This document shows, in pieces, positions 38,728 through 64,000 of a stretch of DNA of 64,000 nucleotides (within the stretch, counting starts at the first letter, position 1; every line of letters starts with the position of its first letter). Below the pieces are notes generated by a model that saw only the letters and a list, made by a program, of their open reading frames with translations, made no database searches and was not told the DNA's origin. A program made the translations under genes and the position numbers. The stretch is from a virus (Duplodnaviria; Heunggongvirae; Uroviricota; Caudoviricetes), in the IMG/VR virus record IMGVR_UViG_2861084961_000001. One strand, 5' to 3'.

Positions 38728-41043
38728 ATGATAAGCATCGTAAAACGTAACGGCCAAACAGAGCCGTTATCCGAAGAAAAATACAACCGCGTCGTAATGT
38801 ATGGCGTAGAAGGCATTCGTGGTGTAAGCGCATCCGCTGTAGCAATGGGAGCTGCGGCCAGCATTTTTGATGGGATTACCACCAGCCAGTTGCATGAGGC
38901 TTTGGTTAAATCTGCCGCTGATTTGATCTCACCAGATGCACCAAATTACTCACAGGTGGCTGCCCGCCTGAACATTTTTAAAATCCGCAAAGATGCCTTC
39001 GGTCGTTACGACTATCCGAACTTCTACCAACACATTGTCAAGAACGTTAACAAGGGCGTTTATGACAAGGATTTGCTGACACATTATTCGTTTGAAGAGA
39101 TCGAAGAACTCGGCAATTACATTAAGCCTAAACGTGACGATCTTTTTGGCTATGCAGCTACGGTGCAATTGCAAAGCAAATACCTCGTTCAAAACCGTGT
39201 TACTGGTGAGATTCATGAGGGGCCGCAACATATCTATATGCTGGTAGGCATGTGTCTGTTCCAGAATTGGGAAGACGACTGCGCTGGCAAAACACGTATG
39301 GAGATGGTCAAAGGTTTCTATGACGTTACAAGTACGTTCAAACTGTCTCTGCCCACACCAATCATGGCCGGCGTCCGTACTCCAACCCGTCAGTTCTCCA
39401 GTTGTGTGCTGATTGAGTCTGGCGATAGTCTGAAAGGGATTAGCGCAGCTTCAGCCGCAATTATCGACTACGTTTCACGTCGTGCTGGAATTGGTATTGG
39501 TTTTGGCCGTATCCGTGCGCTGGGCAGTGAGATCCGCAATGGTGAAGCCACCCATACCGGAGTTATTCCATTCCTGAAGCATTTCCAGACGGCTGTTAAA
39601 TCTTGCTCGCAAGGTGGTGTCCGTGGTGGCGCAGCAACAGCGTTTTACCCGATTTGGCATCTTGAAGTTGAAAGTCTGCTGGTGGTGAAAAATAACCGTG
39701 GTATCGATGAAAACCGCGTTCGCCATCTTGATTACGGTGTCATGAGTAACCGTCTGATGTACCGTCGACTCGTCAGAAGCGAGAACATCACTCTGTTCAG
39801 CCCGCATGATGTGCCTGATATGTACGAAGCCTTCTTCACAGACCAGGATCTGTTTGAAAAGCTGTACCATAAATACGAAGCCGATGATTCAATTCGCAAG
39901 AAGTCAGTGCCTGCCATTGAGCTGTTCTCATCTCTGATGCAGGAACGAGCGTCCACGGGCCGAATTTATATTGCGAACGTCGATCATATTAACGAGCATG
40001 GCGCTTTCATTCCTGCTCTTGCACCTGTCCGCCAGTCAAACCTGTGTATGGAGATCACCCTACCCACCCGTCCACTGACATTTACCGACGACCCGAACGG
40101 TGAGATCGCGCTTTGCACTTTATCCGCTTTTAACCTCGGAGCCATCCGTTCACTGGAGTCTCTTAAAGAGGTGGCGTTCTATGCCGTCGCTGCACTGGAT
40201 TCGTTACTGGATTATCAAGACTATCCGATGGAGGCAGCCGAAGTGCCTGCCAAAGCTCGTCGTAGCCTGGGAATCGGTGTAACCAACTTTGCTTATTACC
40301 TGGCAAAGAATGGCGTTCGTTATTCTGATACCGCTGGCAATAAACTGGTGCATGAAACGTTCGAAGCTATCCAGTATTACCTTCTCGATGCCAGCTGCCA
40401 ACTTGCTGAAGCTAAAGGTGAGTGTGACTGGTTTGAGCAGACCAAATACGCAATTGGTCAGTTGCCGATCGACCATTACCGTTCTTCATTAGACGAAAGT
40501 GGTGAAACCAACTTTGAGTTAAAGATGCCGTGGGAAGAACTGCGTGAACGTATTGCAAAATTCGGTCTTCGCAACTCCACACTGACGGCACAAATGCCAT
40601 GCGAGACTTCCAGCCAGATCACTAATTCCACCAACGGCATCGAACCGCCTCGTGGACCGGTGTCGGTGAAATCTTCTAAGGACGGCATCGTTAAGATGGT
40701 CGTGCCTGAGTTTGAAAAACTGAAGGAACAGTATGAATACCTGTGGGATATGCCGGACAACCGCGGCTATCTGACAAAGGTGGCGATCATCCAGAAGTTC
40801 TTTGACCAGGCTATTTCAGCCAATACCAACTATGACCCTTCTCGCTTTGAAGGCGATAAAGTCCCAATGATGACGCTACTGTCAGATTTGCTTCTCGCCT
40901 ACAAGATGGGAGTTAAAACGCTTTACTACCACAACACCAGAGATGGGGCAGGAAAGCGTGATGACGACGAACCGCAGAATCCACTGACGCAAGCTGTAGC
41001 CGTCGAGCCAGAAGATGAGTGCGACGGAGCCTGCAAAATCTGA
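38728..41043 (+). CDS. nrdA: Ribonucleotide reductase class Ia large subunit NrdA (T4-like)
   Basis: 771 aa intact ORF; N-terminal ATP cone; TPIMAGVRTPTRQFSSCVLIESGDSLKGI and NLCMEI, CETSSQITNSTNGIEPPRGP active-site regions closely match T4/E. coli NrdA. Confidence 0.95.
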   Translation: MISIVKRNGQTEPLSEEKYNRVVMYGVEGIRGVSASAVAMGAAASIFDGITTSQLHEALVKSAADLISPDAPNYSQVAARLNIFKIRKDAFGRYDYPNFYQHIVKNVNKGVYDKDLLTHYSFEEIEELGNYIKPKRDDLFGYAATVQLQSKYLVQNRVTGEIHEGPQHIYMLVGMCLFQNWEDDCAGKTRMEMVKGFYDVTSTFKLSLPTPIMAGVRTPTRQFSSCVLIESGDSLKGISAASAAIIDYVSRRAGIGIGFGRIRALGSEIRNGEATHTGVIPFLKHFQTAVKSCSQGGVRGGAATAFYPIWHLEVESLLVVKNNRGIDENRVRHLDYGVMSNRLMYRRLVRSENITLFSPHDVPDMYEAFFTDQDLFEKLYHKYEADDSIRKKSVPAIELFSSLMQERASTGRIYIANVDHINEHGAFIPALAPVRQSNLCMEITLPTRPLTFTDDPNGEIALCTLSAFNLGAIRSLESLKEVAFYAVAALDSLLDYQDYPMEAAEVPAKARRSLGIGVTNFAYYLAKNGVRYSDTAGNKLVHETFEAIQYYLLDASCQLAEAKGECDWFEQTKYAIGQLPIDHYRSSLDESGETNFELKMPWEELRERIAKFGLRNSTLTAQMPCETSSQITNSTNGIEPPRGPVSVKSSKDGIVKMVVPEFEKLKEQYEYLWDMPDNRGYLTKVAIIQKFFDQAISANTNYDPSRFEGDKVPMMTLLSDLLLAYKMGVKTLYYHNTRDGAGKRDDDEPQNPLTQAVAVEPEDECDGACKI

Positions 41044-49830: not shown

Positions 49831-50421
49831 ATGACGTCGAAGACACCAGCCCGGTCGCAAGCAAAAACTCGCAAAAAAGACAAAAACAAAAATTCTCCCC
49901 GCACCAATCCCACAACGCCTGTCGTAGAGTTCAATCCCCAGCTTAAAACCGTGAAAATCTTCAGTGATGGCTCTTGCCTTAAAAATCCGGGTGGCCCGGG
50001 CGGTTACGGTATAGTTCTCCAGTATCGTGGTGAGGAACGCGAGTTCTCAGATGGTTTTCATAGCACCACCAATAACCGCATGGAGATGATGGGGGCACTT
50101 ATCGGGCTGGAGCGTTTGAAATATCCATGCAACGTTATTTTGCACTCTGATAGCCAGTATCTGAAAAACGGCATGACACAGTGGATGAAATGGTGGAAAC
50201 GCAATGGATGGATGACTTCTGACAAAAAACCGGTAAAGAATGTTGATCTGTGGAAGCGTCTGGATGAGGCCGCAAGTCGACATAATGTTCGCTGGAAGTG
50301 GGTTAAAGGTCACGCCGGGCATCGTGAAAATGAAATATGTGATCGACTCGCGAAGATCGCAGCTTTTTCCGCAGCAGATATGCCTCACAAGAAAGATATT
50401 GGTTTTGTTTATAACAAGTAG
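49831..50421 (+). CDS. rnhA: Ribonuclease HI with short basic N-terminal extension
   Basis: [62 protein letters not shown] closely match E. coli RNase HI; start at ATG 49831 rather than ORF start 49747. Confidence 0.85.
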
Positions 50422-50569
50422 TAAGTAAGTGTTTACCTATCATTTTAAATCATGTATCTTATCGGCGTCAGGATGACAATGTGTCGGTAAGACACAGTTC
50501 CAGGATGGAACGAGAAAGGCGGCTGGCAATCGCCAGCCGCAACTCTTTCTGACACTGGATGGAGTCCAC

Positions 50570-51064
50570 ATGGCACGTCAAACCTATTTCACTTCTGCAA
50601 CTAAACGTCCTCGTTCTTTACGTCAAATTTTGGCCGAATTATTTAGCGGTCGTGTTATGTCACGTCTTGATGAACTAGAGACTACCGTTCGGTTGCTGAA
50701 TGAACGTTTAGATAATCAAGCGTCAGTTGTTGCGAACGTGGGGGCGATTGTTGCCTCTGGTTCTTCACGCGAAGCGAAAAGTACACGGCCTTTAGTGAAG
50801 GAGAAAAACAACAAGGACAGTTCGAATGGAAAATTTTCAAAGAAAGAGGCTGAAACCAATGGCCTACGTTCTCATTATAGTTTCACTGGCGACGGTAGCC
50901 GTTCCAGCCGGCCAGAGCCTTTTGATGCCGGATTCATCCATCACCACACCTTCGTCGACGACAATTACCACCACTCCAGTGGAGCGTCCTGTCACTCTGG
51001 ATGGGATGGCGGTGGATGCGATACCTCAAGTTCATCCAGTTACTCAGGATCATGCTGTGACTAA
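50570..51064 (+). CDS. Hypothetical Ser/His/Cys-rich protein (164 aa)
   Basis: ORF. Confidence 0.4.
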   Translation: MARQTYFTSATKRPRSLRQILAELFSGRVMSRLDELETTVRLLNERLDNQASVVANVGAIVASGSSREAKSTRPLVKEKNNKDSSNGKFSKKEAETNGLRSHYSFTGDGSRSSRPEPFDAGFIHHHTFVDDNYHHSSGASCHSGWDGGGCDTSSSSSYSGSCCD

Positions 51065-51073
51065 GGCGGTTGT

Positions 51074-51262
51074 ATGAACTGGTTTTCAAATCACTTTGGA
51101 AAAATTTGGCTGGCAATTCTTGCCCTCATGGCCGCCGGTTGGGTATCGAACATTATAAAACTTGTTTGCTCTGGCGATCTCCAGTTTCAGGCTGGCATGA
51201 CCTTGGCTCGTGTAGTTGGGATTTTTGTTTTTCCAGTTGGTTCGGTACTTGGTTATTTCTGA
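51074..51262 (+). CDS. Small membrane protein (62 aa)
   Basis: Two hydrophobic segments. Confidence 0.35.
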   Translation: MNWFSNHFGKIWLAILALMAAGWVSNIIKLVCSGDLQFQAGMTLARVVGIFVFPVGSVLGYF

Positions 51263-51355
51263 CGGCTGTTAGTGCATATGCATTGACCATCTCTGCGTAA
51301 GCAATTTATGTAATTAGAAAACAACTTGTTTTGACAAATAATAAAAGGAAAACAC

Positions 51356-51780
51356 ATGTTAGGTTTCTTCAAAAAGAAAACTCGTAAAGCTGTTATCGAA
51401 GTCAAAAAATGGAGAACCGTGATGCGGTTGAGGCCACCGTGTGGGGCGCGTACATGATCTCCTATGCCGACGGCACATGTGACGCAAAAGAAATTGCCAT
51501 TCTTGAGAAGACAATTGCAGCTCTGCCTGCGTTTTCTCCGTTTGCTGGTGAAATTGCCCAAATGAGCGCCAATATCCGTGCTCGTTACGAAGCGTCCCCT
51601 CGTTCTGCTAATGCACAGGCTATTCGTGAGCTGTCTGATATTGCGGGTACTCCAGAGGCGGTCGATGTTCTGTGTCTGTGCCTTGATATTGCCGATCAGG
51701 ACGGCATTGGTGAACAAGAAGAGCAGGCACTGAAAAAGATCGCCCAGGCGCTTCAGTTGTCACTGGATGCTTATCTCTAA
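51356..51780 (+). CDS. TerB-like domain protein, frame broken at A-run 51404-51409
   Basis: ATVWGAYMISYADGTCDAKEIAILEK...DQDGIGEQEEQALKKIAQAL resembles TerB; ATG 51356 follows conserved AAAAGGAAAACACATG. Confidence 0.5.
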
Positions 51781-52076
51781 TGCTTGAGAGATTCCGGCTT
51801 GTGATCGTCATTGCTCTTCTGGTGATGGCGGTGTTGGTGGATTTACGGGAAAGATGATGTCTGTCATTTCTGATGGCGTCCTCATTGGTTTGGCGATCTA
51901 CTTCGCTTATCCGTTAGTTCGTAAAGCAAAGTGTTAATGACAAGGGCCAAATGGCCCTTGTGTTTCGTTGACCGAAATAGAGAGTTTGCACCTTTACGTT
52001 TAGCTTGCTCCCCTTTTATGCCACATCACAATAAAGCCAATAAGAAAACAACTTGTTTAAGCATTAGGAAAAACAC

Positions 52077-52643
52077 ATGTGCAAGAAATGCAAAGCGATA
52101 GCTGATGAACAAAACGCCTTATTCGAAGAAATGGATGCTAATGAACTGGTCAAAATGTTAGCCATTCTTCGAGGAATAGAAGACGTTTCCATATTTGAGA
52201 GAGTGGTTACAGCACTTAATTTTGAGTCCACCTTTGAAGAGCCAACTCAGGTTGTAGCTTTAGCACATCATTTCGGTGTTCATTATCTTGCTGAAAAAGA
52301 GAGAGCTGATAAGTTGCAAGCGACTTTGGATATGGTGAGCGAGACTCAAGGAACTCATGACGGTAACAAAAGTGAGACGATTATTGCCAGCAAAGATCGT
52401 GAAATTGCCGGGCTTAAATCCTCTCTAACGATGTTGATGTCTGCAATTAACCTTATGTCTTCTAAAGCAGGTTATAAAATGCCATCACTAAACAGCGACG
52501 ATCCGATGGCCGTTCGCCAGCTTTTAGGTGCAATGGCCGACCAGCTCGACGACACAAAGAGTCGCCTTGAAGACATGATGCGGGAGCTCACGCATCGCCA
52601 TGACTTGAATAAGCAGCCACACAAAACGCAATACGCACTCTAA
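52077..52643 (+). CDS. Hypothetical coiled-coil protein (188 aa)
   Basis: Conserved start context. Confidence 0.45.
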   Translation: MCKKCKAIADEQNALFEEMDANELVKMLAILRGIEDVSIFERVVTALNFESTFEEPTQVVALAHHFGVHYLAEKERADKLQATLDMVSETQGTHDGNKSETIIASKDREIAGLKSSLTMLMSAINLMSSKAGYKMPSLNSDDPMAVRQLLGAMADQLDDTKSRLEDMMRELTHRHDLNKQPHKTQYAL

Positions 52644-52784
52644 TACTGCACCAGTCGACAGGGGGCGAAAGCCCCCATTTTTACGCCTTAAATCTGCTGT
52701 AACGCCTATGAATGCAGCTTTTATGCCTTTTCAAGTTTGCGATAATTACACCAATAAGAAAACAAATTATTTAATGGTGTAATT

Positions 52785-54470
52785 ATGAATACAGCCCTTT
52801 CCATCATCGACGATGCCAGCTCAAACACGGCTATCGACTATCGTCAGGAAATGAATGTCATCCACGAAATCGTGGACGAGTGCGAGAAAGAGATCGCCTT
52901 CATGTATCAGGTACACGACTTCGTTTATGGCGACGAACGCCACAACATGATTAATCGCCTGCTGAGACTAAACCATCGACCAGATGAAGATCGCTCGCGT
53001 TTAAATCGAGGTTGGTTGGATAAAGTTGATCTGGAATGGGTGAAACAGAATATTTGGGCCGAGTACTGGAGGAAGGTCACGGACATGACTAACGTTTTGC
53101 TGATCATGCCAGCTTCCCGTCGAGATGAGTGGCGCGAGCAGTTTATAGAGGGCAAACAGGAAGTCATCAAAACTGACAGAACCGGCTACCAGATGAAGGT
53201 TAAAGAGTTCGTTGGTGTACCGGAGTTCAAAGCAGAAACGGTCATACCCACGATGCTTAATTTGCTGAATGACAGGCACAAATATCTCTCTGAGCGCGTG
53301 TATGGCTTGTTTAAGGCGCTGAGTCCTGCGCACAAGACAAATAAGACAAACGGTTTCAGCGAGCGTCTGATAATCGCTGACTGCATTTCTGATTTCTGGC
53401 GGGACAGCGTTAGCGTGAACTATCGCAAAGAGGACTACATCGACGATCTGCGTGTCTTGCTTCATTTCTTCGCGCACAAAGAATTTATTACCATCAACCG
53501 CACTGCTGAGGTGCTATCAGCTGCGTATCGGGCAAACGACTGCCAGACCGGTGACTGGATGAACGTCGATGGAAATCTGATGCGCGTGAAGATGTTCAAG
53601 AACGGCAACGTTCACTTTGAAATACATCCTGACGTGGCCTGGAAGTTGAATGAGGTGCTGGCTTACAGTATGCCTGCTGCAATCCCCGCGCCATGCCGAA
53701 CTGCGCCAAAAACACGGGCACCAAAGCAGTTCGGTTTAATCCAGAAGACGATCTCCGTGCCGGTTCGCACTGCGCTTCGTGACGGGCGATTGAGCAAAGA
53801 CAAAGGCGTATGGTACTTCTCTGATTCAGCTCTCCAGAAGTCGCAGGTGGAAGAGCTTGAGCGCACACTGAGCTTCATTGGCGGCGTGCAGGAGAAAAAG
53901 CACTGGCAGTTCCCGTATGACATCGGCCATACGCTAAATACGATTGTGGCTACCGGTTTAATACCGGATACAAAATCACACCAGTTCTACCCTACCCCAC
54001 GCTTGATTGCTGAGTACGTTGCCAGAGCCACTGAATTGAAGCCTGGTGAGAAGCTGCTTGAGCCTCACGCCGGACGTGGGGATCTTCTGGCCTATATTAA
54101 CGCCGATCTGGAAGATGTTACCTGCATAGAAATCGCACCTCTCTTCGCTGATATCCTGCGTGGAAAAGGGTATACGAACACGATTTGCTGCGACTTCATA
54201 AAGTGGTCTGAGGACAACGCAGGTTATCAGTTCGACAAAATCGTTATGAACCCGCCGTACTCGCTTGGTCGTCATAGGGAGCACACGATGGCTGCGCTGG
54301 GGCATCTGAAAGTCGGCGGGCGTCTTGTAGCAGTATTGCCGGGCACTGCGCCAATACTGGACTGGATGACGATGGATAATTACGTTTATGCCAGAGGGAA
54401 GTCGTTTACCAACGAGTTTGAAGACACAGGGATCACAGTCAGCGTATACGTTTTCAAACGCGTTAAATGA
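52785..54470 (+). CDS. Large protein with C-terminal N6-adenine DNA methyltransferase domain and ~400 aa N-terminal domain of unknown function
   Basis: FYPTP, LLEPHAGRGDLLAYI (SAM-binding) and VMNPPYS (catalytic) in C-terminal third; 561 aa intact ORF. Confidence 0.7.
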   Translation: MNTALSIIDDASSNTAIDYRQEMNVIHEIVDECEKEIAFMYQVHDFVYGDERHNMINRLLRLNHRPDEDRSRLNRGWLDKVDLEWVKQNIWAEYWRKVTDMTNVLLIMPASRRDEWREQFIEGKQEVIKTDRTGYQMKVKEFVGVPEFKAETVIPTMLNLLNDRHKYLSERVYGLFKALSPAHKTNKTNGFSERLIIADCISDFWRDSVSVNYRKEDYIDDLRVLLHFFAHKEFITINRTAEVLSAAYRANDCQTGDWMNVDGNLMRVKMFKNGNVHFEIHPDVAWKLNEVLAYSMPAAIPAPCRTAPKTRAPKQFGLIQKTISVPVRTALRDGRLSKDKGVWYFSDSALQKSQVEELERTLSFIGGVQEKKHWQFPYDIGHTLNTIVATGLIPDTKSHQFYPTPRLIAEYVARATELKPGEKLLEPHAGRGDLLAYINADLEDVTCIEIAPLFADILRGKGYTNTICCDFIKWSEDNAGYQFDKIVMNPPYSLGRHREHTMAALGHLKVGGRLVAVLPGTAPILDWMTMDNYVYARGKSFTNEFEDTGITVSVYVFKRVK

Positions 54471-54531
54471 TAGGTAAATACTTACTTAATTTATGTAAGA
54501 ATGTAGTAACTAAACGATAAGAGAAAAACAC

Positions 54532-55236
54532 ATGAGCAACCTCCAGTTAGAGCATTTTAACGTCACAGGCCATTCCGATTTTCCTTTCAAGTTTACATTG
54601 AAAGGTTATGCGGAGGATGCGGTAGGCCAGATCATTATTGATAAAGGTATCGTTAAGTTTGAGGGGAATTTTGATGAATCCGCGAAAACATTCATAGACT
54701 TCGTTGCCAAACGTTGGAGCGAGCAATGGAAAGACCTGGAAAAGCGCGCCAATGAGTTTGATCGGTTCATGGATGCAATGGATACAGCAAAAGAGGCTCT
54801 GGCTGCCGGGACTCCGTTAGATCTGGAGTCACTTTTCAACGGCACAATGGCCTCTGCGATGTTCGCCACCATGTTCGCGGGTGAGTTCGTCCGCAGCGGT
54901 GCCAAAAACTACCTTGAGCTGGATTACAACGTCCCTGAAATTGGCGATTTCGTCGTTACCATCCAACGAAAAGAAGGTAAGACGCCAGGTGAACGCGTCG
55001 CAGAACTTGAGGCCGTTGTGGAGCAGCGTAACGGCGAGTGCGTTCGTTTGATCAACGAACGTAATGCTCTTCGTGAAGAAAAAATATGCACAGGTAGCAA
55101 TACACGTAATGCAGCGGATATCTACTTCCAGTTAGTTGAGGAATGCCAGATTCCACCAGGTGGCTCTCTTGTCGATTACGTCAGACATTTAATGGCGGAA
55201 GTTAACTCCAGCCATAAAGATGGTGAGGTGCGCTGA
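54532..55236 (+). CDS. Hypothetical protein (234 aa)
   Basis: Conserved start context AGAAAAACACATG. Confidence 0.45.
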   Translation: MSNLQLEHFNVTGHSDFPFKFTLKGYAEDAVGQIIIDKGIVKFEGNFDESAKTFIDFVAKRWSEQWKDLEKRANEFDRFMDAMDTAKEALAAGTPLDLESLFNGTMASAMFATMFAGEFVRSGAKNYLELDYNVPEIGDFVVTIQRKEGKTPGERVAELEAVVEQRNGECVRLINERNALREEKICTGSNTRNAADIYFQLVEECQIPPGGSLVDYVRHLMAEVNSSHKDGEVR

Positions 55237-55616
55237 TGTTTGGCATTGATGCACAGCGTATAGCAGCTTTTGCAAAAAGCCCTCTTGATAATCCCTTGTC
55301 TCGTAGTGAGCAAATGGAGCTGGCAAGGCTTTTTCTTCACATTCAAAAACAGGCAGACGTTTTCAATAACATGCCTGATCAACCTATTCTGGATGGTCAC
55401 ATCCAGATGGTCATTAACAGTCATGAGAAAGGCTGGGCTGCAATCGTCCCCTGCACAATTACATACAAGTTGGCGAAAGAGGTTCAAGAGTTTCGAAAAG
55501 CCAGTGTCGAATCGGAGTCTACCAAAGCCGCAATAAACACTCTTATTCGCATGGGGTTCACATGGGACGGTGGAGTTTACTGGCAAGCACCTCAACCCAT
55601 TTTATCCGGCAATTAG
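55236..55616 (+). CDS. Hypothetical protein (126 aa)
   Basis: Start-overlaps upstream stop. Confidence 0.4.
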   Translation: MFGIDAQRIAAFAKSPLDNPLSRSEQMELARLFLHIQKQADVFNNMPDQPILDGHIQMVINSHEKGWAAIVPCTITYKLAKEVQEFRKASVESESTKAAINTLIRMGFTWDGGVYWQAPQPILSGN

Positions 55617-55735
55617 GCGCTACAAATCCTTCTGCATGAATAAATAAAGGCCATAACTTATGGCCTTAAATAAATTGTTTTCTACCTTTTCTTATTTGTG
55701 AAAATAACCACAACTAGAAAACAACGGAGTTAAGA

Positions 55736-56377
55736 ATGTCTAGTATTTCCGAAGCTCATATGTTCGCCGCTGGCGCTCATGGTGGCGTTGGTCAGAAAAG
55801 AAAATATACCGGCGAAGACTACATCAACCACCCGGTTGCTGTACGAGAGATTGTTGCATTGCATGACGGAACCGTGGATATGCAAATCGCGGCGCTTCTG
55901 CATGATGTGGTCGAAGACACCCATGTAACCATAGAGATGGTTCGTGATCACTTCGGTGAGCGCGTAGCTGAAATGGTTCAGGCTCTGACCAACATTGCAA
56001 GGCCAGAAGACGGCAATCGAATACAGCGTTTCATCATCAATGTCCGGGAGCTGGAGCAAAATCTCGACATGCAGACGCGCATGATCAAGCTGGCTGACCT
56101 GCTCGACAATACCTCTTCTATCGTGAGTCGCGATCCTGAGTTTTCAGCTATCTACCTTGCAGAGAAAGAGCTGATGCTGGACGTACTTTTTAACGGGAAG
56201 GAGATTGGTGCCAACGCTGATGTTGTCGAGTACATGGAGAGGATAGGTATAGAACACCCGTTGCTATTAAGCGCAATGGCGAAAGTCACTGAAGGTATTG
56301 CGCTTCTGAAACCGGAACACATCAAACGTTATGAAAAACACAAATCGCTGATCTGGAGCGCGTGGGAGGCTGCATGA
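55736..56377 (+). CDS. HD-domain hydrolase resembling RelA/SpoT-type (p)ppGpp hydrolase (small alarmone hydrolase candidate)
   Basis: INHPVAVREIV...AALLHDVVEDT HD motif and downstream ADLLDN; ~213 aa, no synthetase domain. Confidence 0.65.
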   Translation: MSSISEAHMFAAGAHGGVGQKRKYTGEDYINHPVAVREIVALHDGTVDMQIAALLHDVVEDTHVTIEMVRDHFGERVAEMVQALTNIARPEDGNRIQRFIINVRELEQNLDMQTRMIKLADLLDNTSSIVSRDPEFSAIYLAEKELMLDVLFNGKEIGANADVVEYMERIGIEHPLLLSAMAKVTEGIALLKPEHIKRYEKHKSLIWSAWEAA

Positions 56378-56520
56378 AGGTAGAAAAAATAGATGTTCTT
56401 TCCTTTGTGCTGACGGATCTGGAACGTCTCGATCCGGTTCGAGTGATGATTGAAAACTACGAACCTGGTAAGGGAAGAATCACCATCACCTGCTACGGAA
56501 AAGCGTGGACTGCGGCTTAG
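56374..56520 (+). CDS. Small hypothetical protein (48 aa)
   Basis: ATGA start-stop overlap with upstream gene. Confidence 0.3.
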   Translation: MKVEKIDVLSFVLTDLERLDPVRVMIENYEPGKGRITITCYGKAWTAA

Positions 56521-56526
56521 TTTGCT

Positions 56527-56916
56527 ATGGGCGGTGATGATGTGCAGACGTTCATCAAGCGAGTTAGCAACGACTATCTAATCGACAATTTCGACCCTCA
56601 ACTGCTAAGCACGGTCGACGATGACAACGATGCAAATCTGCTTTTCGTGAAGTCAGAAATCATAAAGTTACGAAGAGAGAGAGAAATCGACGCCGTACTA
56701 GCTCGTGAAATGTGGGACGAGGCGGAAAACGCCGATGACGTAAAAGAAAGCTGCTGTTGTTTCGGCGTCGGTAACAAACTGTTGAATCTCTTTGGTGATG
56801 ATCCGTGGTATGCCGACTGGCCAACTGTACCAAACCCGAAATACCAGTATCTGGAACGCATTGTGAACGCGGTACGTGAAGGGCTGAAAGAGTTAGACAA
56901 GTTAGAGGCATCGTAA
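56527..56916 (+). CDS. Hypothetical protein (129 aa)
   Basis: ORF in tightly coupled operon. Confidence 0.4.
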   Translation: MGGDDVQTFIKRVSNDYLIDNFDPQLLSTVDDDNDANLLFVKSEIIKLRREREIDAVLAREMWDEAENADDVKESCCCFGVGNKLLNLFGDDPWYADWPTVPNPKYQYLERIVNAVREGLKELDKLEAS

Positions 56917-57371
56917 TGAGAGAGAAAATCAAGAACCCGGTCGTCGTATTGTATAAACGGGAAACCAGCGATTCTTATGCGGTATCCATCACTGATGGAA
57001 GCCAGAACATGCACGATGGTCTGCTAATGGCCGCCGTATCTCCTGATGATTCGGACTACCCTTTCGCCACTTTCGCTATGGTTGGTTACTACATGGCTGC
57101 CGAAATTGAGAAGTTGCGGGCGCAGAGAGACGCATTAGCGGCGGAGAATGCAGCCCTGAAAGAATCTGAGCGAGCATTCGATGCGATGTGTGCCGAGGAA
57201 CACGGAGATAATTGGGTTAGCGAATTAACGGAGACTCCAGCCACCGATGCTTTTCTGGCTGAAGTACGTGCGCAGGGCGTGGAGATGTTTGCGGAGTGTG
57301 CATACACACTTGAACATCATGATCACGCAGTAGCTTTTGCCGCCGAGCTACGTAAAGGAGATAGACAGTGA
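56916..57371 (+). CDS. Hypothetical protein (151 aa)
   Basis: ORF; start overlaps upstream stop. Confidence 0.4.
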   Translation: MREKIKNPVVVLYKRETSDSYAVSITDGSQNMHDGLLMAAVSPDDSDYPFATFAMVGYYMAAEIEKLRAQRDALAAENAALKESERAFDAMCAEEHGDNWVSELTETPATDAFLAEVRAQGVEMFAECAYTLEHHDHAVAFAAELRKGDRQ

Positions 57372-57841
57372 GTGAGATTAACTACCTGGCGTTACGTGAG
57401 CGTTATTCACCAAAACCAGCGCCTAGATGCTCTGTTTGTGGCGAGGAAATGTCAATACAGCGCATATCTGGAGCACATGTCGTTTATGCCTGCTCCGGTG
57501 AGGGTGATGACGGATATTTTAAGATAGGACGTACTTTTGCAGACGAACATTATGAAAAATCACGCGTAACAGTAGTTGATGATAGTGATCCCGATGTGAT
57601 TGCACTGCTGGAAGAACTGGATAAAAGACGACATTACATCGGACGTCTTGAGCAGGAGAACGTAGAGATGGCCCTAACGCTTGAGAAGCTGCGTGTTGAG
57701 ATGAAGGCAGCCAAATCAAAACTCAACGAGCAGCGTGAGTATTACGAAGGTGTTATCTCGGATGGAAGCAAGCGCATAGCCGCTCTTCTTTGCAAGGACA
57801 ATCTTGTCAGCACCACGAACATTGAAGGTGAAAGAAGATGA
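57368..57841 (+). CDS. Hypothetical protein with CxxC pair and coiled-coil (157 aa)
   Basis: ORF; start overlaps upstream stop. Confidence 0.4.
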
Positions 57842-58161
57842 CCACATCGCATTCTGCTATTACCCAGGAAAAAGCCTTCAACATACTCGAACGACTAGAG
57901 ACGCTCGCTACGGAGGAGGAGATATCCCTGGAGAAACTGGTTGAGTTCAGCCGTGTGATATTGCGTCGCAAGAACGATATGGAGCGGCTGACATCTGGCG
58001 CTCCATCCTTATCAGCCAGGCGAACACTTTGTTGCAGCTTCTGCAACAAATCCCAGTACGCCGTCAAAAAGTTAATTGCTGGGGACGCCGTTTTCATCTG
58101 CGACGAGTGTGTGGATGTGTGCAACAGAATTATCCGGGGAGAGAAAGAGGGATCAGCATGA
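57838..58161 (+). CDS. ClpX N-terminal zinc-binding-domain-like protein (stand-alone, 107 aa)
   Basis: [38 protein letters not shown] closely parallels E. coli ClpX ZBD ([37 protein letters not shown]); no AAA+ module follows. Confidence 0.65.
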
Positions 58162-58709
58162 AATTTTCCAAATTTTCTGAGTCGGTGAATCGTATTTTGT
58201 CCAACAACCACAGCCATCGTCGCGATATGGATGTAACGATCGTTGTTCATTCGCCTGGTCGCATCGGTTCAACACCATCAGTTGAGGTTCAGTCAATTCA
58301 GGCGGGTTTTGATTGGGATGCCGGGCAAGTGATGATTTTTCCAGCACAGCCACTGACCACGCTAACACCGGAGCAGGTTGCTGATATTACTGAAAGTGTG
58401 CACAAAGGCCAGTCATGGCACGCGTATCAGGAATACAAGAAGCATAAAGAGCAGTTGGAAAAATTGTCGATGGAGTTGGAAGCCGCTAAACAGAGGGAAA
58501 AAGATCTGTTTATGGAAAATGTTCGACTTAAGTCAGGTATAGCCGGTCTGATACACCTCGGTATTCGATATGCGGATGTCGAGGTCATGAAAATAGCTGG
58601 AGATGCCCAGCTTTCTACTCCCTGTACTGACAGCATCATAAACAGTATTGCATCAGGCGTTTTCACCAAAGAGGGTCAGCATGATGAGAACAGTAGAAGT
58701 TCGCGCTGA
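58158..58709 (+). CDS. Hypothetical protein (183 aa)
   Basis: ATG 58158 overlapping upstream stop; longer ORF start 58029 rejected. Confidence 0.4.
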
Positions 58710-58869
58710 AGATGTAACCCCAGGCGATGTGGTCATAACATCTAAAGGCAAACGATGTGCGGTTAAATCTTTCTGGATGAACGGTGAAAAAGTGACTCTG
58801 TTCGGTACGGATGGTTCCGAAACTGATTATGACTACGACGAATTGCTTGTTGTTGAGAGAGCTACCTAA
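58681..58869 (+). CDS. Small hypothetical protein (62 aa)
   Basis: ORF; internal ATG chosen. Confidence 0.3.
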   Translation: MMRTVEVRAEDVTPGDVVITSKGKRCAVKSFWMNGEKVTLFGTDGSETDYDYDELLVVERAT

Positions 58870-59405
58870 TGACCACCTTTACCAAAGAACAGTTAATCTC
58901 CCATGCACGCGAAAGCGTTAGTTATCTGGAAGACTTGAAAGGACGTGTTAGTAAAGAAGGAGCGGACTGCAAAGTTGTTCATGAGATGGTTGAACGAGAT
59001 CTAAAACTGGCTCGAATTGCGCTGACCTCACTGGAGGCAGAGCCAGTGGCGTGGCAGGTAACACTCACAAAAAACGATCAGGAATCAGTCTCTATTATTT
59101 ACCGTGACTGTGCAGAGAAAGATACATGGGTTCGGATATATGAGTCACTCGGTTCTGTCGCACATGTTGCCCCGCTTTACATGGCGCAGCCAGAACCGTC
59201 GAAGGAGGAGAAAGGACGTTCAGTCATCCAGGGTAAAGCCGATAATTCACCATTGCCGCGCTACCAGGTTATCGAATTAACAATGCTGGTTAAACAATTG
59301 GTCAGCCAACTGAAAAAAGCAAAACCTGATTGCAAATTACCGGATAGGGCGATGGATTATCTTTTGCGGAACGGACTGCTAAGTGTGGAGGATGCCTTAC
59401 GATGA
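58869..59405 (+). CDS. Hypothetical protein (178 aa)
   Basis: ORF. Confidence 0.4.
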   Translation: MTTFTKEQLISHARESVSYLEDLKGRVSKEGADCKVVHEMVERDLKLARIALTSLEAEPVAWQVTLTKNDQESVSIIYRDCAEKDTWVRIYESLGSVAHVAPLYMAQPEPSKEEKGRSVIQGKADNSPLPRYQVIELTMLVKQLVSQLKKAKPDCKLPDRAMDYLLRNGLLSVEDALR

Positions 59406-59680
59406 TTGAAATGACAAAAGAAGAACTAACACAGGCAACAAAGGATTACGGAAAAATGCACATCGCACATCGTATGGCGAATGTGTTACTGGCCTTGTCT
59501 GAACAAAAGCCATCTGCGTTTGTAATGAAAGATGATTTGGCCGATCCGGCAATTGTTTCGACTCCGGCATATTTAGATATTGAGGATGCGGAACAAAAAA
59601 CGATTGGGATATTGTCGCGCTTTATGCCGATCCCTTTCCTGTCATCGGCGACACTACTGCTCTTGTGGACGATATTTTAA
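59402..59680 (+). CDS. Hypothetical protein (92 aa)
   Basis: ORF; start-stop overlap. Confidence 0.35.
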   Translation: MIEMTKEELTQATKDYGKMHIAHRMANVLLALSEQKPSAFVMKDDLADPAIVSTPAYLDIEDAEQKTIGILSRFMPIPFLSSATLLLLWTIF

Positions 59681-59988
59681 ACATTCTCGCGCTTCTTGAG
59701 GCTGGCGATTGGTCAGAACATTGCACTAAAACGGAGTTAGGCGGTCGGCTTGAAAGAGAGATTACACAACTTATTGGTGATGCCCAAAATGATTTGTCAC
59801 CTGAGCATCTCCCCTGCGATGTAGTCCTTGTGCCAGGGATGAGGATACACGAAGGCGTCAGAACGAAAACATTATTAACCGCATTACAGAGAAGAGCCGA
59901 ACTAAGCTCGCGGATAAAGTTGATGCCATCCAAAATATTTGATGTCGTCAAATTTACGCCATCGCAACATACTGAGAGAGATAAATGA
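59665..59988 (+). CDS. Hypothetical protein (107 aa)
   Basis: ORF. Confidence 0.35.
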   Translation: MDDILNILALLEAGDWSEHCTKTELGGRLEREITQLIGDAQNDLSPEHLPCDVVLVPGMRIHEGVRTKTLLTALQRRAELSSRIKLMPSKIFDVVKFTPSQHTERDK

Positions 59989-60611
59989 GCACGGTAGCGA
60001 AAGATCTCACAGAAGATATTCTCAATGAAATTATTGTTGGTGCAAATACCTCGCTTGAGCAACTTCTTGCGTTAGCACTGAGAGCCGAACGTCGAGACAG
60101 AAATCGTTTTTATGAGCGATTACCTGGGAAACGACCAGATAGATCAGATGAAGAAGGTTGCGATATAGACTACATGGAGCCTTCAGAGATTTATCAACTT
60201 GGTAAAGATGACGGCTGGAACGCTTATCACGATGCTGTGATGAAGTTGGATGAAAAAGTTAAACCTCTTTCTCGAACGGTAGATCACGGTTTCCGCGATA
60301 ACTGCGAATGCTCTAGTTGCCAGACCACGGCCCGTATTTGTTCCGAATTGACAGATAAATCCAGCCTAATCTACGAAGTTAATGTAGGCGGTAATACATG
60401 GGTCGAATGCACAAGAGCTGCATACGTAAGAGCAAAAGACAAGGGTGAATTAACCAGAGTTGTTGCCCATCACCCAAATAATGAGCTTAAAGATCACCAA
60501 ATTCGAGAACTGGTGAACGAGTTGAGGGATATTGCGGTTCAGTACCACGGAACGCAGCAATTGCGGGAGAAGATTGCCAGAGCAGTGAACAACTCAGTCC
60601 GTAAAAAATAA
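59985..60611 (+). CDS. Hypothetical protein with Cys cluster (208 aa)
   Basis: ORF; CECSSCQ motif; last gene before noncoding junction. Confidence 0.4.
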   Translation: MSTVAKDLTEDILNEIIVGANTSLEQLLALALRAERRDRNRFYERLPGKRPDRSDEEGCDIDYMEPSEIYQLGKDDGWNAYHDAVMKLDEKVKPLSRTVDHGFRDNCECSSCQTTARICSELTDKSSLIYEVNVGGNTWVECTRAAYVRAKDKGELTRVVAHHPNNELKDHQIRELVNELRDIAVQYHGTQQLREKIARAVNNSVRKK

Positions 60612-60720
60612 GCAATAGTACGATAAAGAGGCCCCATGCTCTTGATGGGGCCTGTAGCAACTAGCGTTATGGACGCTGGTTTACGTACTCAATGATCGCT
60701 TTGATAATCGCGAACATCGG

Positions 60721-61024
60721 CGGCACGATTTTGAACAGTAAGTTAACCATAACAGGCCTCACTTAGTTTTATCGCGCCTAGCTGCAAATACCTTTGGGCT
60801 TGCCTTTGCAGTTGCAATATCTGTAGTCGCCAGATACTTACGGCACGATTTCGAGTTAAGGTAAGGTTTTAGAGTCACCAAAAACCTGGACTTAAATCTT
60901 CTTTGAGAACAACGATGTTTAGTAAATGGTCATTATTACCTGGTATGACCACTCAACGTTTCTTGATGAATCCAGTACATTCGGTTAATCTTAATTCAGT
61001 CGCCAGATACTTATGGCTCAGGAA
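60721..61024. repeat. Interleaved direct repeats: composite agtcgccagatacttacggcacgattt (60825-60851) with its right half repeated at 60721-60731 and left half at 61008-61023
   Basis: Exact 11 bp and 16 bp matches read from sequence. Confidence 0.6.
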
Positions 61025-61049
61025 CAGAGCCGCAAACTCTGTTTCCTTT

Positions 61050-61082
61050 TAAAAAGCCCAGCCTAGTCAACTGGGCTTTTTA
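61050..61082. terminator. Hairpin aaaaagcccagcctagtcaactgggcttttt (bidirectional terminator candidate), preceded by second hairpin ggaacagag...ctctgtttcc
   Basis: GC stem flanked by A-run and T-run. Confidence 0.6.
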
Positions 61083-61379
61083 ATGTCTATTTTTAACCCA
61101 ATGAACCTTCAATACCGCAACATCAGTGTCTTGCGAATTAAGATAGTGTGTATAGGTTATACATGCAAGTGCATAACTCTGTGGATAACTCAGGAAGGAA
61201 AAAGTAGCTTCCGCGCAATTTAGGCCAGACAAGGCTTTCGCAAAAATCAACGGAGAGAAAAAAATTTGTTAAAAATAACGTTTGTTGGAATTGTATATAT
61301 TTATGCCTTTCAATAGTTAGCATCTTATTAACATCTTTTTTAAGAGATAGAGTTCAAAAATATATAGCTTCAACATATA

Positions 61380-61395
61380 CTGTATGCATATACAG
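61380..61395. promoter_or_regulatory. LexA (SOS) box CTGTATGCATATACAG upstream of UmuD'-like gene
   Basis: Perfect CTGT-N8-ACAG palindrome 19 bp upstream of ATG 61414. Confidence 0.8.
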
Positions 61396-61413
61396 TATTA
61401 AGAGGCGAGTATT

Positions 61414-61803
61414 ATGGGCTTCCCTTCTCCTGCGGCGGATTATGCTGAGAGCCGTATTTCTCTTGATCAGCAGATAATTAGACATCCTTCAGCGACCTAC
61501 TTCTTGAGGGCAGCTGATAGCCATCATCGTGAGGGAATATTGCAGGGTGCATTGCTGGTGGTCGATTCCTCACTCACTCCTGTTGATGGATCTCTTCTTG
61601 TATGTGCTCTGGATGGGGAATATCGCGTAAAAAGATACCGGAAGTATCCACGTCAGCATCTGGAGGATTTAAGAACTGGTAAGAAGGAAGCATTGCCAAA
61701 GGATGATGATGGATGCACGGGCAGCAATGCCGTGTTTGGTGTGATCACTCACATTATCAACGACGCAAGAAGTGGCGAGTTTGATGATTGTCCTGTGATG
61801 TAG
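61414..61803 (+). CDS. UmuD'-like protein (HumD-like; starts at the position corresponding to the UmuD self-cleavage site)
   Basis: MGFPSPAADYAESRISLDQQIIRHPSATYF matches UmuD residues ~25 onward; Ser-containing ADS motif; no umuC-like gene follows. Confidence 0.7.
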   Translation: MGFPSPAADYAESRISLDQQIIRHPSATYFLRAADSHHREGILQGALLVVDSSLTPVDGSLLVCALDGEYRVKRYRKYPRQHLEDLRTGKKEALPKDDDGCTGSNAVFGVITHIINDARSGEFDDCPVM

Positions 61804-61815
61804 GAGAACTGTTTA

Positions 61816-61839
61816 GGTGGTGCATTGCACCACCTTTTT
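61816..61839. terminator. Bidirectional terminator hairpin ggtggtgcattgcaccacc + T-run between convergent umuD'-like and mrp
   Basis: 9 bp stem with T-run on plus strand and A-run equivalent on minus strand. Confidence 0.65.
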
Positions 61840-61840
61840 A

Positions 61841-62941
61841 TCACACTGCGCGGAATGCGATTTCGCCAGGTATTACTTCACCTTGCCAATACATTTGGGC
61901 AGCAACGCGATCTGCGAGGTCACGATAAATAGCCGTAAATTCGCTATCTGGACGACTAATAACGGTTGGTGTTCCGTTATCCAGATCCTCACGAAGAGAG
62001 ATATGAAGTGGCATTTGGCCTAACAACTGCGTGTTGTATTTCTCGGCCAGTTTCTGTGCGCCACCGGTGCCAAAAATTGGCTCGTGATGACCGCAGTTAC
62101 TGCAAATATGCACACTCATGTTTTCGACGATACCTAGTACCGGCACTTCGACTTTTTCGAACATCACAATGCCTTTCTTCGCATCGATCAGCGCGATGTC
62201 TTGCGGCGTAGTTACCACAACCGCACCAGTTACAGGAATGTTCTGCGCCAGCGTCAATTGAATATCACCAGTGCCCGGCGGCATATCGAGAACGAGATAG
62301 TCCAGATCAGGCCACAGTGTTTCCTGCAACATCTGCATCAGCGCCTTGCTGGCCATCGGTCCACGCCACACCATTGCATTGTCGTCGGTGACCAGATAAC
62401 CAATAGAGTTGGTTGCCAGGCCATGAGACATGATAGGTGCCATGTGAGTACCGTCCGGTGAGGTTGGACGTTGGTTTTCCGCACCCAGCATGGTTGGAAT
62501 TGATGGACCGTAGATATCGGCATCCAAAATACCAACTTTCGCACCTTCAGCAGCCAACGCCAGTGCCAAGTTTACTGCTGTGGACGATTTGCCTACACCG
62601 CCCTTGCCTGAGCTGACGGCGATGATGTTCTTAACGCCATTAATGCCTGGTTGGTTTTTGACGCGCTTAAGCGTGGCAATGTTGTACGACAGCTTCCAGT
62701 CGATAGCCTTTGCGCCAGTGATACGGAGCAGATCACCACTACATTGCTCTTTCAGGTCTTCAAAAGGCTTATTCCACACGAAAGGCATGATTAGTTCGAC
62801 ATGCAGTGTGTCATCCATCAACGCAACATGGTGTAACGCTTTAAGCGTAGTCAGGTTGTGCTTCAGGGTTGGGTGCTGAAAATTAGCCAGCGTACCGGCT
62901 ACCATTGCTCTCAGGGCATCCGGCGATTTGGACTCGCTCAT
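61841..62941 (-). CDS. apbC: Fe-S cluster carrier ATPase ApbC/Mrp
   Basis: 366 aa; P-loop GKGGVGKS, CxxC; chromosomal gene divergent from metG as in E. coli. Confidence 0.9.
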   Translation of the reverse strand: MSESKSPDALRAMVAGTLANFQHPTLKHNLTTLKALHHVALMDDTLHVELIMPFVWNKPFEDLKEQCSGDLLRITGAKAIDWKLSYNIATLKRVKNQPGINGVKNIIAVSSGKGGVGKSSTAVNLALALAAEGAKVGILDADIYGPSIPTMLGAENQRPTSPDGTHMAPIMSHGLATNSIGYLVTDDNAMVWRGPMASKALMQMLQETLWPDLDYLVLDMPPGTGDIQLTLAQNIPVTGAVVVTTPQDIALIDAKKGIVMFEKVEVPVLGIVENMSVHICSNCGHHEPIFGTGGAQKLAEKYNTQLLGQMPLHISLREDLDNGTPTVISRPDSEFTAIYRDLADRVAAQMYWQGEVIPGEIAFRAV

Positions 62942-63098
62942 CCCGTCTCCTTTATTTTAATTTGCGCAATTGTCGCCTTGTAGTGTACTCCAGCTACGAC
63001 ATTTAATCATTTATGAGAAATGCTGTTATCACATGGCAGACATAAGGCCATTTTGTTACTATCAAGCCCCTTTTCACTACAAAGAAGTAATGCCTACT

Positions 63099-64000
63099 AT
63101 GACCCAAGTCGCGAAGAAAATTCTGGTGACGTGCGCGCTGCCGTACGCTAACGGCTCAATCCACCTCGGCCATATGCTGGAGCACATCCAGGCTGATGTC
63201 TGGGTTCGTTACCAGCGAATGCGCGGCCACGAGGTTAATTTCATCTGTGCCGACGATGCCCACGGTACGCCGATCATGCTGAAAGCACAGCAGCTTGGTA
63301 TCACACCGGAACAGATGATTGGCGAAATGAGCCAGGAACACCAGACTGATTTCGCAGGCTTTAACATCAGCTATGACAACTATCACTCGACGCACAGCGA
63401 AGAGAACCGCCAGCTGTCTGAGCTTATCTATACTCGCCTGAAAGAGAACGGTTTTATTAAAAACCGCACTATCTCTCAGTTGTACGACCCGGAAAAAGGC
63501 ATGTTCCTGCCGGATCGTTTTGTGAAAGGCACCTGTCCGAAATGTAAAGCGCCAGATCAATACGGCGATAACTGTGAAGTTTGCGGCGCGACCTACAGCC
63601 CGACTGAACTGATTGAGCCGAAATCGGTAGTTTCTGGCGCTACGCCGGTAATGCGTGATTCTGAACACTTCTTCTTTGATCTGCCCTCTTTCAGCGAAAT
63701 GTTGCAGGCATGGACCCGCAGCGGTGCGTTGCAGGAGCAGGTGGCAAACAAAATGCAGGAGTGGTTTGAATCTGGTCTGCAACAGTGGGATATCTCCCGC
63801 GACGCACCTTACTTCGGTTTTGAAATTCCGAACGCGCCGGGTAAATATTTCTACGTCTGGCTGGACGCACCGATTGGCTACATGGGTTCCTTCAAGAATC
63901 TGTGCGACAAGCGCGGCGACACTACCAGCTTCGATGAATACTGGAAGAAAGACTCCACCGCCGAGCTGTACCACTTCATCGGTAAAGATATCGTTTACTT
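63099..64000 (+). CDS. metG: Methionyl-tRNA synthetase (5' portion, continues beyond window)
   Basis: [43 protein letters not shown] with HLGH motif and zinc knuckles CPKC...CEVC; essentially identical to E. coli MetG as recalled. Confidence 0.95.

Follow-up and report, generated by a model that had tools for sequence, protein, structure and literature searches.

A compact mosaic gene array in an SSU5-like phage-plasmid and its likeness to lambdoid and P22-type accessory regions

In the virus record IMGVR_UViG_2861084961_000001, a stretch of 64,000 nucleotides (nt) referred to here as the window, ten genes of the same strand form a tightly packed array at positions 55736–60611. The array is composed of a gene for an HD-domain protein followed by nine + strand genes, designated G1 to G9. 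A long rightward block of genes for replication and nucleotide metabolism ends distally in this array, which occupies a slot bounded by a conserved gene of 126 amino acids (aa) on the left and the SOS-regulated humD gene on the right. A preliminary description, made from the sequence alone, had counted about twelve small genes at 56374–60611; the true number in this interval is nine, and two pairs of open reading frames (ORFs) are single broken genes. Naive ORF counting thus inflates the array because two genes are split by point lesions. The coupled chain also begins further upstream than had been described, with the HD gene at 55736–56377, which overlaps G1 by 4 nt.

From HD/G1 to G8/G9, the true junctions measure −4, −1, −4, −4, −4, −29, −1, −4 and −4 nt, corresponding to ATGA or GTGA overlaps (−4), TAATG junctions (−1) and a single overlap of 29 nt. 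The earlier observation that neighbours overlap by 1–4 nt or more was therefore partly confirmed: it stands for all true junctions, whereas the apparent junctions of +6 and −16 nt are artefacts of the lesions in G1 and G8. A purine run resembling a Shine-Dalgarno (SD) motif lies inside the 3′ end of the upstream gene at every true start, and inspection of the junctions revealed no SD-like motif at the fallback starts 56527 (ATG) and 59665 (GTG). As a background for packing, the Prokaryotic Genome Annotation Pipeline (PGAP) annotation of the related plasmid pECAZ162_2 was employed, with 100 same-strand junctions outside the cluster. Overlaps were found at 9/9 junctions of the window cluster versus 23/100 in this background (Fisher p = 6.6e-6), where the median gap was +43.5 nt. 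The tight packing is real and unusual within this replicon, though it is common in phage accessory regions.

The array thus displays the sequence features of a coupled operon, namely genes on the same strand, overlapping stop and start codons, and a ribosome-binding motif within the upstream gene. A promoter scan of 55736–60611 returned no + strand promoter-like site, and the sole + strand terminator-like site in this interval (56120–56134) is weak and lies inside the HD gene. By analogy with other coupled operons, the genes may share a single transcript, with translation of downstream genes depending on that of the upstream ones. Comparison with divergent homologues gave ratios of nonsynonymous to synonymous substitution rates (dN/dS) of 0.09–0.66 for all ten genes, which places their reading frames under purifying selection. 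An Rfam search of 50000–64000 at E <= 0.1 found nothing.

The first gene of the array encodes an HD-domain protein of 213 aa (Pfam HD_4, E 1.2e-18) and joins G1 through an ATGA overlap. Its matches among PDB sequences are MESH1, small alarmone hydrolases and RelA/SpoT hydrolase domains (E 1e-12 to 1e-8), and by this similarity it resembles a small alarmone hydrolase. The gene is present in five of the eight relatives first fetched (loci L001–L008) and also in L017 and L018. G1 (56374–56916) is a gene for a 180-aa protein of the PF26211 (Phage_phiTE_072) family, interrupted by an in-frame TAG at 56518–56520. The ORFs 56374–56520 and 56527–56916 share a frame and jointly make up the 180-aa protein WP_022644967.1, which is intact in relatives; the lesion is a TGG>TAG change (G>A at 56519), and both closest relatives carry TGG. 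The PF26211 family is widespread in Enterobacterales, its listed members are nearly all full-length (mostly 178–181 aa), and G1 is intact in nearly all listed cluster representatives, which come from many genera. The predicted model of G1 (predicted local distance difference test score, pLDDT, 88) resembles only uncharacterised phage proteins, and its comparison with solved structures produced no informative neighbour. A fixed two-gene module of HD and G1 was considered and ruled out, as G1 homologues occur in Klebsiella and Pectobacterium prophages without an HD neighbour.

The second broken gene, G8 (59402–59988; 195 aa when intact; phrog_19524), is frameshifted by the loss of one G after 59605 (GGGG>GGG). 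The ORFs 59402–59680 and 59665–59988 correspond to residues 1–89 and 89–195 of the intact protein, which was aligned from three relatives (L005, L006 and L007). The fragment 59402–59680 alone has no PHROG hit, and the repaired 195-aa protein matches through its C-terminal part only. Translation would terminate prematurely 396 nt before G2 as a result of the G1 lesion and 305 nt before G9 as a result of the G8 lesion. If real, the G1 nonsense codon and the G8 frameshift should uncouple the genes behind them, the expression of which is probably reduced, and may exert polarity on everything downstream.

The preliminary description had recognised no motif apart from the ClpX zinc-binding domain (ZBD). 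This view was overturned by profile searches: G3 belongs to Pfam Ead_Ea22, G1 homologues carry PF26211, and eight of the nine genes G1–G9 match PHROG families. NCBIfam yielded nothing apart from the ClpX domain, and a PDB sequence search with all array proteins gave matches limited to the ClpX ZBD and to HD/alarmone hydrolases. G2 (56916–57371; 151 aa; phrog_492, E 3e-38) has homologues in seven relatives at 60–99% aa identity with a dN/dS of 0.22–0.34, and those in Cyrano and PhiR41_1 are labelled “Eae-like”. G3 (57368–57841) starts with GTG and encodes a 157-aa Ead/Ea22-like protein, in which a Cys-containing module at the N-terminus is accompanied by a coiled coil of the Ea22 type. It covers positions 1–138 of the 139 in the Ead_Ea22 profile (PF13935; E 1.9e-30, 106.7 bits against a cut-off of 27), and phmmer matched it to lambda Ea22 across the coiled coil (E 8.6e-25). 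The protein lacks the C-terminal domain of lambda Ea22 and stops 17 residues past the part that it has in common with relatives; PGAP labels the pEC881_2 counterpart, which shows no difference in the 140 aa called, “incomplete, missing C-terminus”. By the three-part architecture of lambda Ea22, the dimeric C-terminal domain of which has been solved by nuclear magnetic resonance, G3 is not its orthologue.

G5 (58158–58709; 183 aa; phrog_6026, E 1.4e-56; phrog_368, E 8.5e-38) combines a specific N-terminal domain (residues 1–114) with a C-terminal Ea22-like coiled coil; the last 84 aa show 95% identity to the C-terminal end encoded by the single Ea22-like gene of the HCP5S3_I4 plasmid. G6 (58681–58869; 62 aa, or 61 aa if the start is 58684; phrog_15283, E 4e-42) overlaps G5 by 29 nt and is the sole array gene found in every E. 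coli (Escherichia coli) relative examined, with 99–100% nucleotide coverage in 9/9 compared. G7 (58869–59405; 178 aa; phrog_660, E 4.9e-39, and phrog_60) is 99% identical to its HCP5S3_I4 homologue, and only its residues 1–61 are common to a DUF551-annotated gene of RMDEC364 (a PGAP pseudogene) and to the PhiR41_1 gene named “EaA protein” by its depositor. The last gene, G9 (59985–60611; 208 aa; phrog_21749, E 1e-146), shares its C-terminal 125 aa with longer variants, and its last ~35 aa recur at ~80% identity in many otherwise unrelated DUF551 proteins. The PHROG families of G2 and G5–G9 carry no functional assignment. Several families match more than one array gene, namely phrog_368 (G2, G3 and G5), phrog_492 (G2 and G5) and phrog_20174 (G8 and G9), which points to modules shared among them. 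BLASTP among the window proteins detected no paralogy at E 0.01, and no direct DNA repeats of >=25 nt were found within 54400–60700; in the absence of repeats, the PHROG modules shared by G2, G3 and G5 are a similarity at the profile level only.

G4 (57838–58161; 107 aa) encodes a stand-alone ClpX ZBD protein, composed of an N-terminal helical hairpin, a flexible linker and a C4 ZBD (Pfam zf-C4_ClpX, E 1.2e-15). Residues 62–102 are ~70% identical to residues 10–50 of E. coli ClpX over 41 residues, as counted from the alignment. All four Cys, invariant across the G4 family, are kept along with the equivalents of ClpX F16 and I46, which form a hydrophobic patch where lambda O, SspB, RssB and trigger factor bind (PMC7804408). 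AlphaFold2 modelling placed the helices at 10–26 and 31–52 and the ZBD at ~64 to 105. The protein thus resembles the ClpX N-domain (PDB 1OVX, 2DS5–2DS8) in its four zinc ligands and F16/I46 ligand-binding patch, and differs from it in the absence of the AAA+ module, and so of any capacity for unfolding, and in the addition of a family-specific N-terminal hairpin. It is not a ClpX unfoldase, scoring 42 bits in the NCBIfam ClpX equivalog against a cut-off of 359. The G4 family is very small and confined to enterobacterial phages. When searched alone among 1.8 billion representatives, the hairpin returned seven representative clusters, always with the ZBD or as short truncated forms, and it therefore gives no independent clue to the role of G4.

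By sequence similarity, the window is assigned to an E. coli phage-plasmid of the SSU5 group. Positions 40000–64000 align over 91–94% of their length, at ~98% identity, with circular E. coli plasmids of 109–113 kb such as pECAZ162_2 and pEC881_2. The phages CMS-2020a, Cyrano and PhiR41_1 cover 70–82% of 50000–64000 at 96–97% identity, and Salmonella phage SSU5 is 87% identical across the conserved, shared part. The annotation of pECAZ162_2 lists a plasmid replication protein (RepB) and ParB alongside terminase, portal, capsid and tail genes, so that the window shows long collinear similarity to elements of ~100–115 kb with both phage and plasmid genes. The phage origin of the operon proposed in the preliminary description was thereby borne out, the replicon being SSU5-like and the gene pool that of lambdoid and P22-like early accessory regions.

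To analyze the variability of the slot, it was compared in nine E. coli relatives, with SSU5 included for the left-hand end. The flanks are 100% covered in most relatives at 97–99% identity (two fetched loci are cut short), as against 27–76% coverage of the cluster in E. coli relatives and 12% in SSU5. Between 5 and 12 genes occupy the slot in differing combinations, and the presence of the HD+G1 pair, the ClpX-domain gene and others varies among relatives. The window follows pEC881_2 over 55600–59045 (98.2%) and the HCP5S3_I4 plasmid over 58473–60700 (97.7%), and we read its arrangement, from these alignments, as a recombinant of two known arrangements. The exact gene order was absent from the three record collections searched, where the best coverage was 85%. 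The product of the single 188-aa Ea22-like gene of HCP5S3_I4 is made up of the first 118 residues of G3 and the last 84 of G5, which identifies the G3 tail, G4 and the G5 head as an insertion between two coiled-coil halves. Exchange of cassettes and half-genes leaves each relative with a different gene set and would set the joints at or just inside gene ends, so that stop and start codons abut or overlap. The array is a clear example of the way such arrays are assembled in temperate phages, with cassettes and half-genes swapped at conserved coiled-coil or terminal segments. At 58676–58709 and in the proteins P0004 and P0007, a near-identical tail (...QHDEN(S/Y)RSSR) ends the different genes that precede G6, i.e., G5 here and the ClpX-domain gene in other elements; these tails are encoded partly within the start of G6, in a different frame from it, and look like a footprint of cassette joining.

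Such variability, together with the lesions, might suggest functionless cargo in decay, i.e., remnants of lambdoid genes acquired by recombination and fallen out of use. The G1 nonsense codon, the G8 frameshift and the truncated Ea22-like gene G3 fit this explanation, as do the PGAP pseudogenes in the slot of three relatives and the highly variable gene content. We nevertheless regard it as very improbable, considering that dN/dS is well below 1 for every gene, that G1 is preserved intact in nearly all listed representatives and G6 in every E. coli relative examined, and that the junction architecture and SD motifs have been maintained.

The gene families of the array are at home in other temperate phages. 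DNA similarity to nearly 500 phage records, including lambda-like, Shiga toxin (Stx)-converting and Salmonella phages, falls mainly in the coiled-coil-encoding parts of G2/G3 and G5, and the genes hit there bear the names Ea22, EaA, Eae or EaE. Slot genes of Cyrano and PhiR41_1 had already been named Eae-, Ea22- and EaA-like by their depositors. In Klebsiella lambdoid prophages, the G1 family is located between RecT/exo and a TraR-like gene, xis and int, i.e., in the exo–xis position, with the same 4-nt overlaps, and in a Pectobacterium prophage it is found in the nin region between P and Q. The array therefore shares with exo–xis and nin-type regions gene families, variability and dispensability.

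The lambda exo–xis region of lambdoid and Stx phages (ea22, ea8.5, orf61, orf63, orf60a, orf73) likewise consists of small non-essential genes on the same strand, with overlaps at orf61/orf63, orf63/orf60a and orf60a/exo. Like the array, it includes a member of the Ea22 family with this type of coiled coil, and it combines high diversity with conserved segments (PMC7093339, PMC10834534). In contrast, the array resides in a phage-plasmid without adjacent int/xis or exo/bet, its G3 is devoid of the Ea22 C-terminal domain, and it holds no homologues of ea8.5, orf60a, orf61 or orf63. The N-antiterminated transcription from pL that serves exo–xis would be hypothetical for the array. The P22 “ea” genes (EaA, Ead, Eae) are linked to the array by DNA and annotation matches in Salmonella and Escherichia phages and in SSU5-like relatives, whereas the similarity concerns modules (chiefly coiled-coil and terminal segments) rather than whole genes and the backbone differs. 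The exo–xis genes are among the earliest transcribed in lambda, and Ea22 favours lysogeny via an unknown host partner (PMC10834534, PMC7093339), a pro-lysogenic effect known only from the genetics of lambda and Phi24B (PMC7093339).

Expression of the slot was assessed in the sole experimental data found, the transcriptomes of LF82 grown overnight in LB (PMC9928086, S1 Table), in which the relative Cyrano carries a mostly different slot gene set. For the five slot genes of Cyrano, the normalised read values were 6.3, 5.5, 8.3, 14.1 and 31.9, where the Cyrano median was 9.8 and the cut-off for morons, i.e., lysogen-expressed genes, was 49 (PMC9928086); Cyrano humD and apbC reached 148 and 92 (PMC9928086). 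Only CYRAN_97, the counterpart of G9, rose clearly above background (32 vs. the median of 9.8). As a plasmid-prophage, Cyrano thus keeps the slot essentially silent, and this level at or near background indirectly supports the view that the array is not a lysogeny function.

Taken together with the homology and mosaicism, these data indicate that the array is probably a set of accessory cassettes for the lytic phase, of the lambda exo–xis / P22 ea kind. It would then be a normal phage accessory array rather than an unusual operon, and a new arrangement of a known kind. The earlier interpretation as an early or host-takeover operon is partly supported; early timing, a takeover role and actual translational coupling are suggested by analogy. 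We propose that the array is repressed while the element persists as a plasmid-prophage and that, on induction or infection, it would be transcribed into one polycistronic mRNA with the start of the lytic programme and translated by termination-reinitiation at the ATGA and TAATG junctions. The small products could bind host or phage proteins: the HD protein may hydrolyse (p)ppGpp or (p)ppApp, the Ea22-like coiled-coil proteins may bias the lysis/lysogeny decision as lambda Ea22 does, and the free ClpX ZBD could compete with ClpX for adaptors or substrates. The genes themselves are drawn from the pool of lambda exo–xis, P22 ea and nin regions and traded as cassettes and half-genes via coiled-coil or terminal segments.

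A narrower reading of the same products would make the array a counter-defence or host-proteostasis island, in which the HD hydrolase destroys the alarmones of toxic alarmone synthetase defences, the ZBD blocks ClpXP steps and the remaining proteins are further inhibitors of immunity. The matches of the HD protein to small alarmone hydrolases and MESH1 are consistent with it, and so is the retention by the ZBD of the four Cys and the F16/I46 patch. Anti-defence genes are usually found in variable arrays of small genes expressed outside lysogeny, which also counts in its favour. However, no array protein matches a characterised anti-defence family or has a known target, and HD and ZBD are each missing from several relatives and not linked to each other. 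We consider this reading unlikely as stated; moreover, it is a more specific version of the lytic-phase accessory array rather than a true alternative to it.

The slot might instead serve as a hotspot for lysogenic conversion and defence, its cassettes being expressed from the plasmid-prophage to exclude phages or mobile elements in the manner of the old, tin and other systems located at gpA–gpQ of P2. In favour of this reading, the slot is a variable cassette site between conserved flanks. In several E. coli prophages, a ZBD gene (~72% aa identity) and a G3-like Ea22 gene (~56%) are found together at P2 gpA–gpQ, a documented anti-phage hotspot known for lysogen-expressed defence genes (PMC9122126). 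The two sites are alike in holding cassettes between conserved phage genes and in being able to carry ZBD and Ea22-like genes, and the toprim-domain gene with which the slot ends on the right in relatives also fits a defence role. They differ in that gpA–gpQ houses documented anti-phage systems (PMC9122126), whereas PADLOC recognised no defence genes in the slot, and the only lysogen measured showed it to be silent. In the PADLOC search, ten proteins were covered (G1–G9; the HD protein was not included) and no credible match was found, the one weak hit having an E of 0.011. Slot genes stayed at background in the LF82/Cyrano lysogen, where genuine lysogen-expressed genes stand out, a weak test in view of the different gene set, and the families are at home in the lytic early regions of lambdoid phages (exo–xis and nin). 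On balance, a defence hotspot appears improbable.

Several points weigh against the lytic-phase accessory array preferred here. A transcript, promoter or protein of the array has been mapped in no SSU5-like element, and the + strand promoter scan of the leader preceding the array found no canonical sigma-70 site. The RNA sequencing data come from a relative with mostly different slot genes and reflect the lysogen state rather than an induction time course. The close homologues of the ClpX-domain and Ea22-like genes at P2 gpA–gpQ fit lysogenic conversion better. Finally, with two of the nine genes broken and one truncated at the C-terminus, the array is at least partly dispensable in this copy.

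Within the array, the ClpX-domain protein is the one lead deserving a bench test. Both SSU5-like phage-plasmids and P2-like prophages, whose backbones are unrelated, carry a G4-type gene that adjoins an Ea22-like gene or lies within two genes of one. A third array with a G4-type gene (L021/L022) has Ead_Ea22 genes at a distance of ~4 kb. We tentatively suggest, as a rather doubtful possibility drawn from sequence comparison, that G4 could be a phage decoy or anti-adaptor for ClpXP, possibly acting with Ea22-like proteins. If this were true, the “unknown host partner” by which Ea22-type proteins bias lysis versus lysogeny would be ClpX itself or its adaptors, and titration of ClpX adaptors or substrates by a phage protein would be a new manipulation of host proteolysis. 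It could also help account for the phenotype of Ea22 in lambda and Shiga-toxin phages, which has long lacked an explanation. In some E. coli P2-like prophages (L012–L016, L019 and L020), the gpA–gpQ site contains ParM/StbA and StbB plasmid-stability genes, then the ClpX zinc-domain gene and an Ea22-like gene; no discussion of the combination of ParM/StbB, ZBD and Ea22-like genes was found in the gpA–gpQ hotspot literature searched.

The leader of the array (55617–55735, +; 119 nt) is conserved and contains a hairpin at 55647–55667 (fold z = −2.8) followed by a T-rich box, TTGTTTTCTACCTTTTCTTATTTGTGAAAATAAC, at 55675–55708. All E. coli relatives have retained it, as has Salmonella phage SSU5; the stem persists despite base changes, and HD-bearing and HD-less arrays part company right after this element. 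The hairpin and T-rich box (TTGTTTTCTACCTTTTCTTATTTG(T/A)GAAAATAAC) are repeated at several intergenic sites of SSU5-like elements. Copies were located at 55647–55708 of the window and at L005:8750–8814, L007:9370–9434, L002:7834–7860, L008:12236–12269 and L009:46839–46869. In some relatives they stand at both array ends, and one of the sites in relatives is between a toprim gene and humD; the window has a single copy. As a guess, the leader element could be a terminator plus a phage-specific promoter, or else a promoter/terminator module or a recombination joint.

Past the 3′ end of the array, a GC-rich 9-bp hairpin at 60629–60653 begins 18 nt after the G9 stop and has no + strand U-tract (fold of 60612–60680, z = −3.8). 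The first canonical intrinsic terminator 3′ of the array, at 61051–61081, is bidirectional (AAAAAGCCCAG-N9-CTGGGCTTTTT; fold z = −4.2). Both are situated in the 800-nt spacer 60612–61413, the small ORFs of which have no family matches. On the − strand of this spacer, a hydrophobic ORF of 31 aa (MRPVMVNLLFKIVPPMFAIIKAIIEYVNQRP) at 60667–60762 is followed by the strong GC hairpin (60653–60629); the ORF has no Pfam or PHROG match, and it may encode a small membrane peptide or nothing. In about half of the relatives, this non-coding spacer is replaced by the toprim-domain gene at the right end of the slot (L002:7280–7804, L004:12113–12637, L005:8212–8736 and L007:8833–9354).

Beyond the spacer, a perfect LexA box, CTGTATGCATATACAG, at 61380–61395 lies just 5′ of the gene for the UmuD/HumD-like S24 peptidase (61414–61803, +). 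The Cyrano humD homologue is strongly expressed and rises further inside macrophages (LF82 data, log2 ~7 to 12). Further downstream are the phage-plasmid's own apbC (mrp; 61841–62941, −) and metG, encoding methionyl-tRNA synthetase (~63100 to the window end, +), both conserved in all E. coli relatives. A first impression of a chromosomal island beside apbC/metG was dropped because both genes are plasmid-borne and kept in all relatives. In the LF82 lysogen, apbC is expressed, at ~92 normalised reads.

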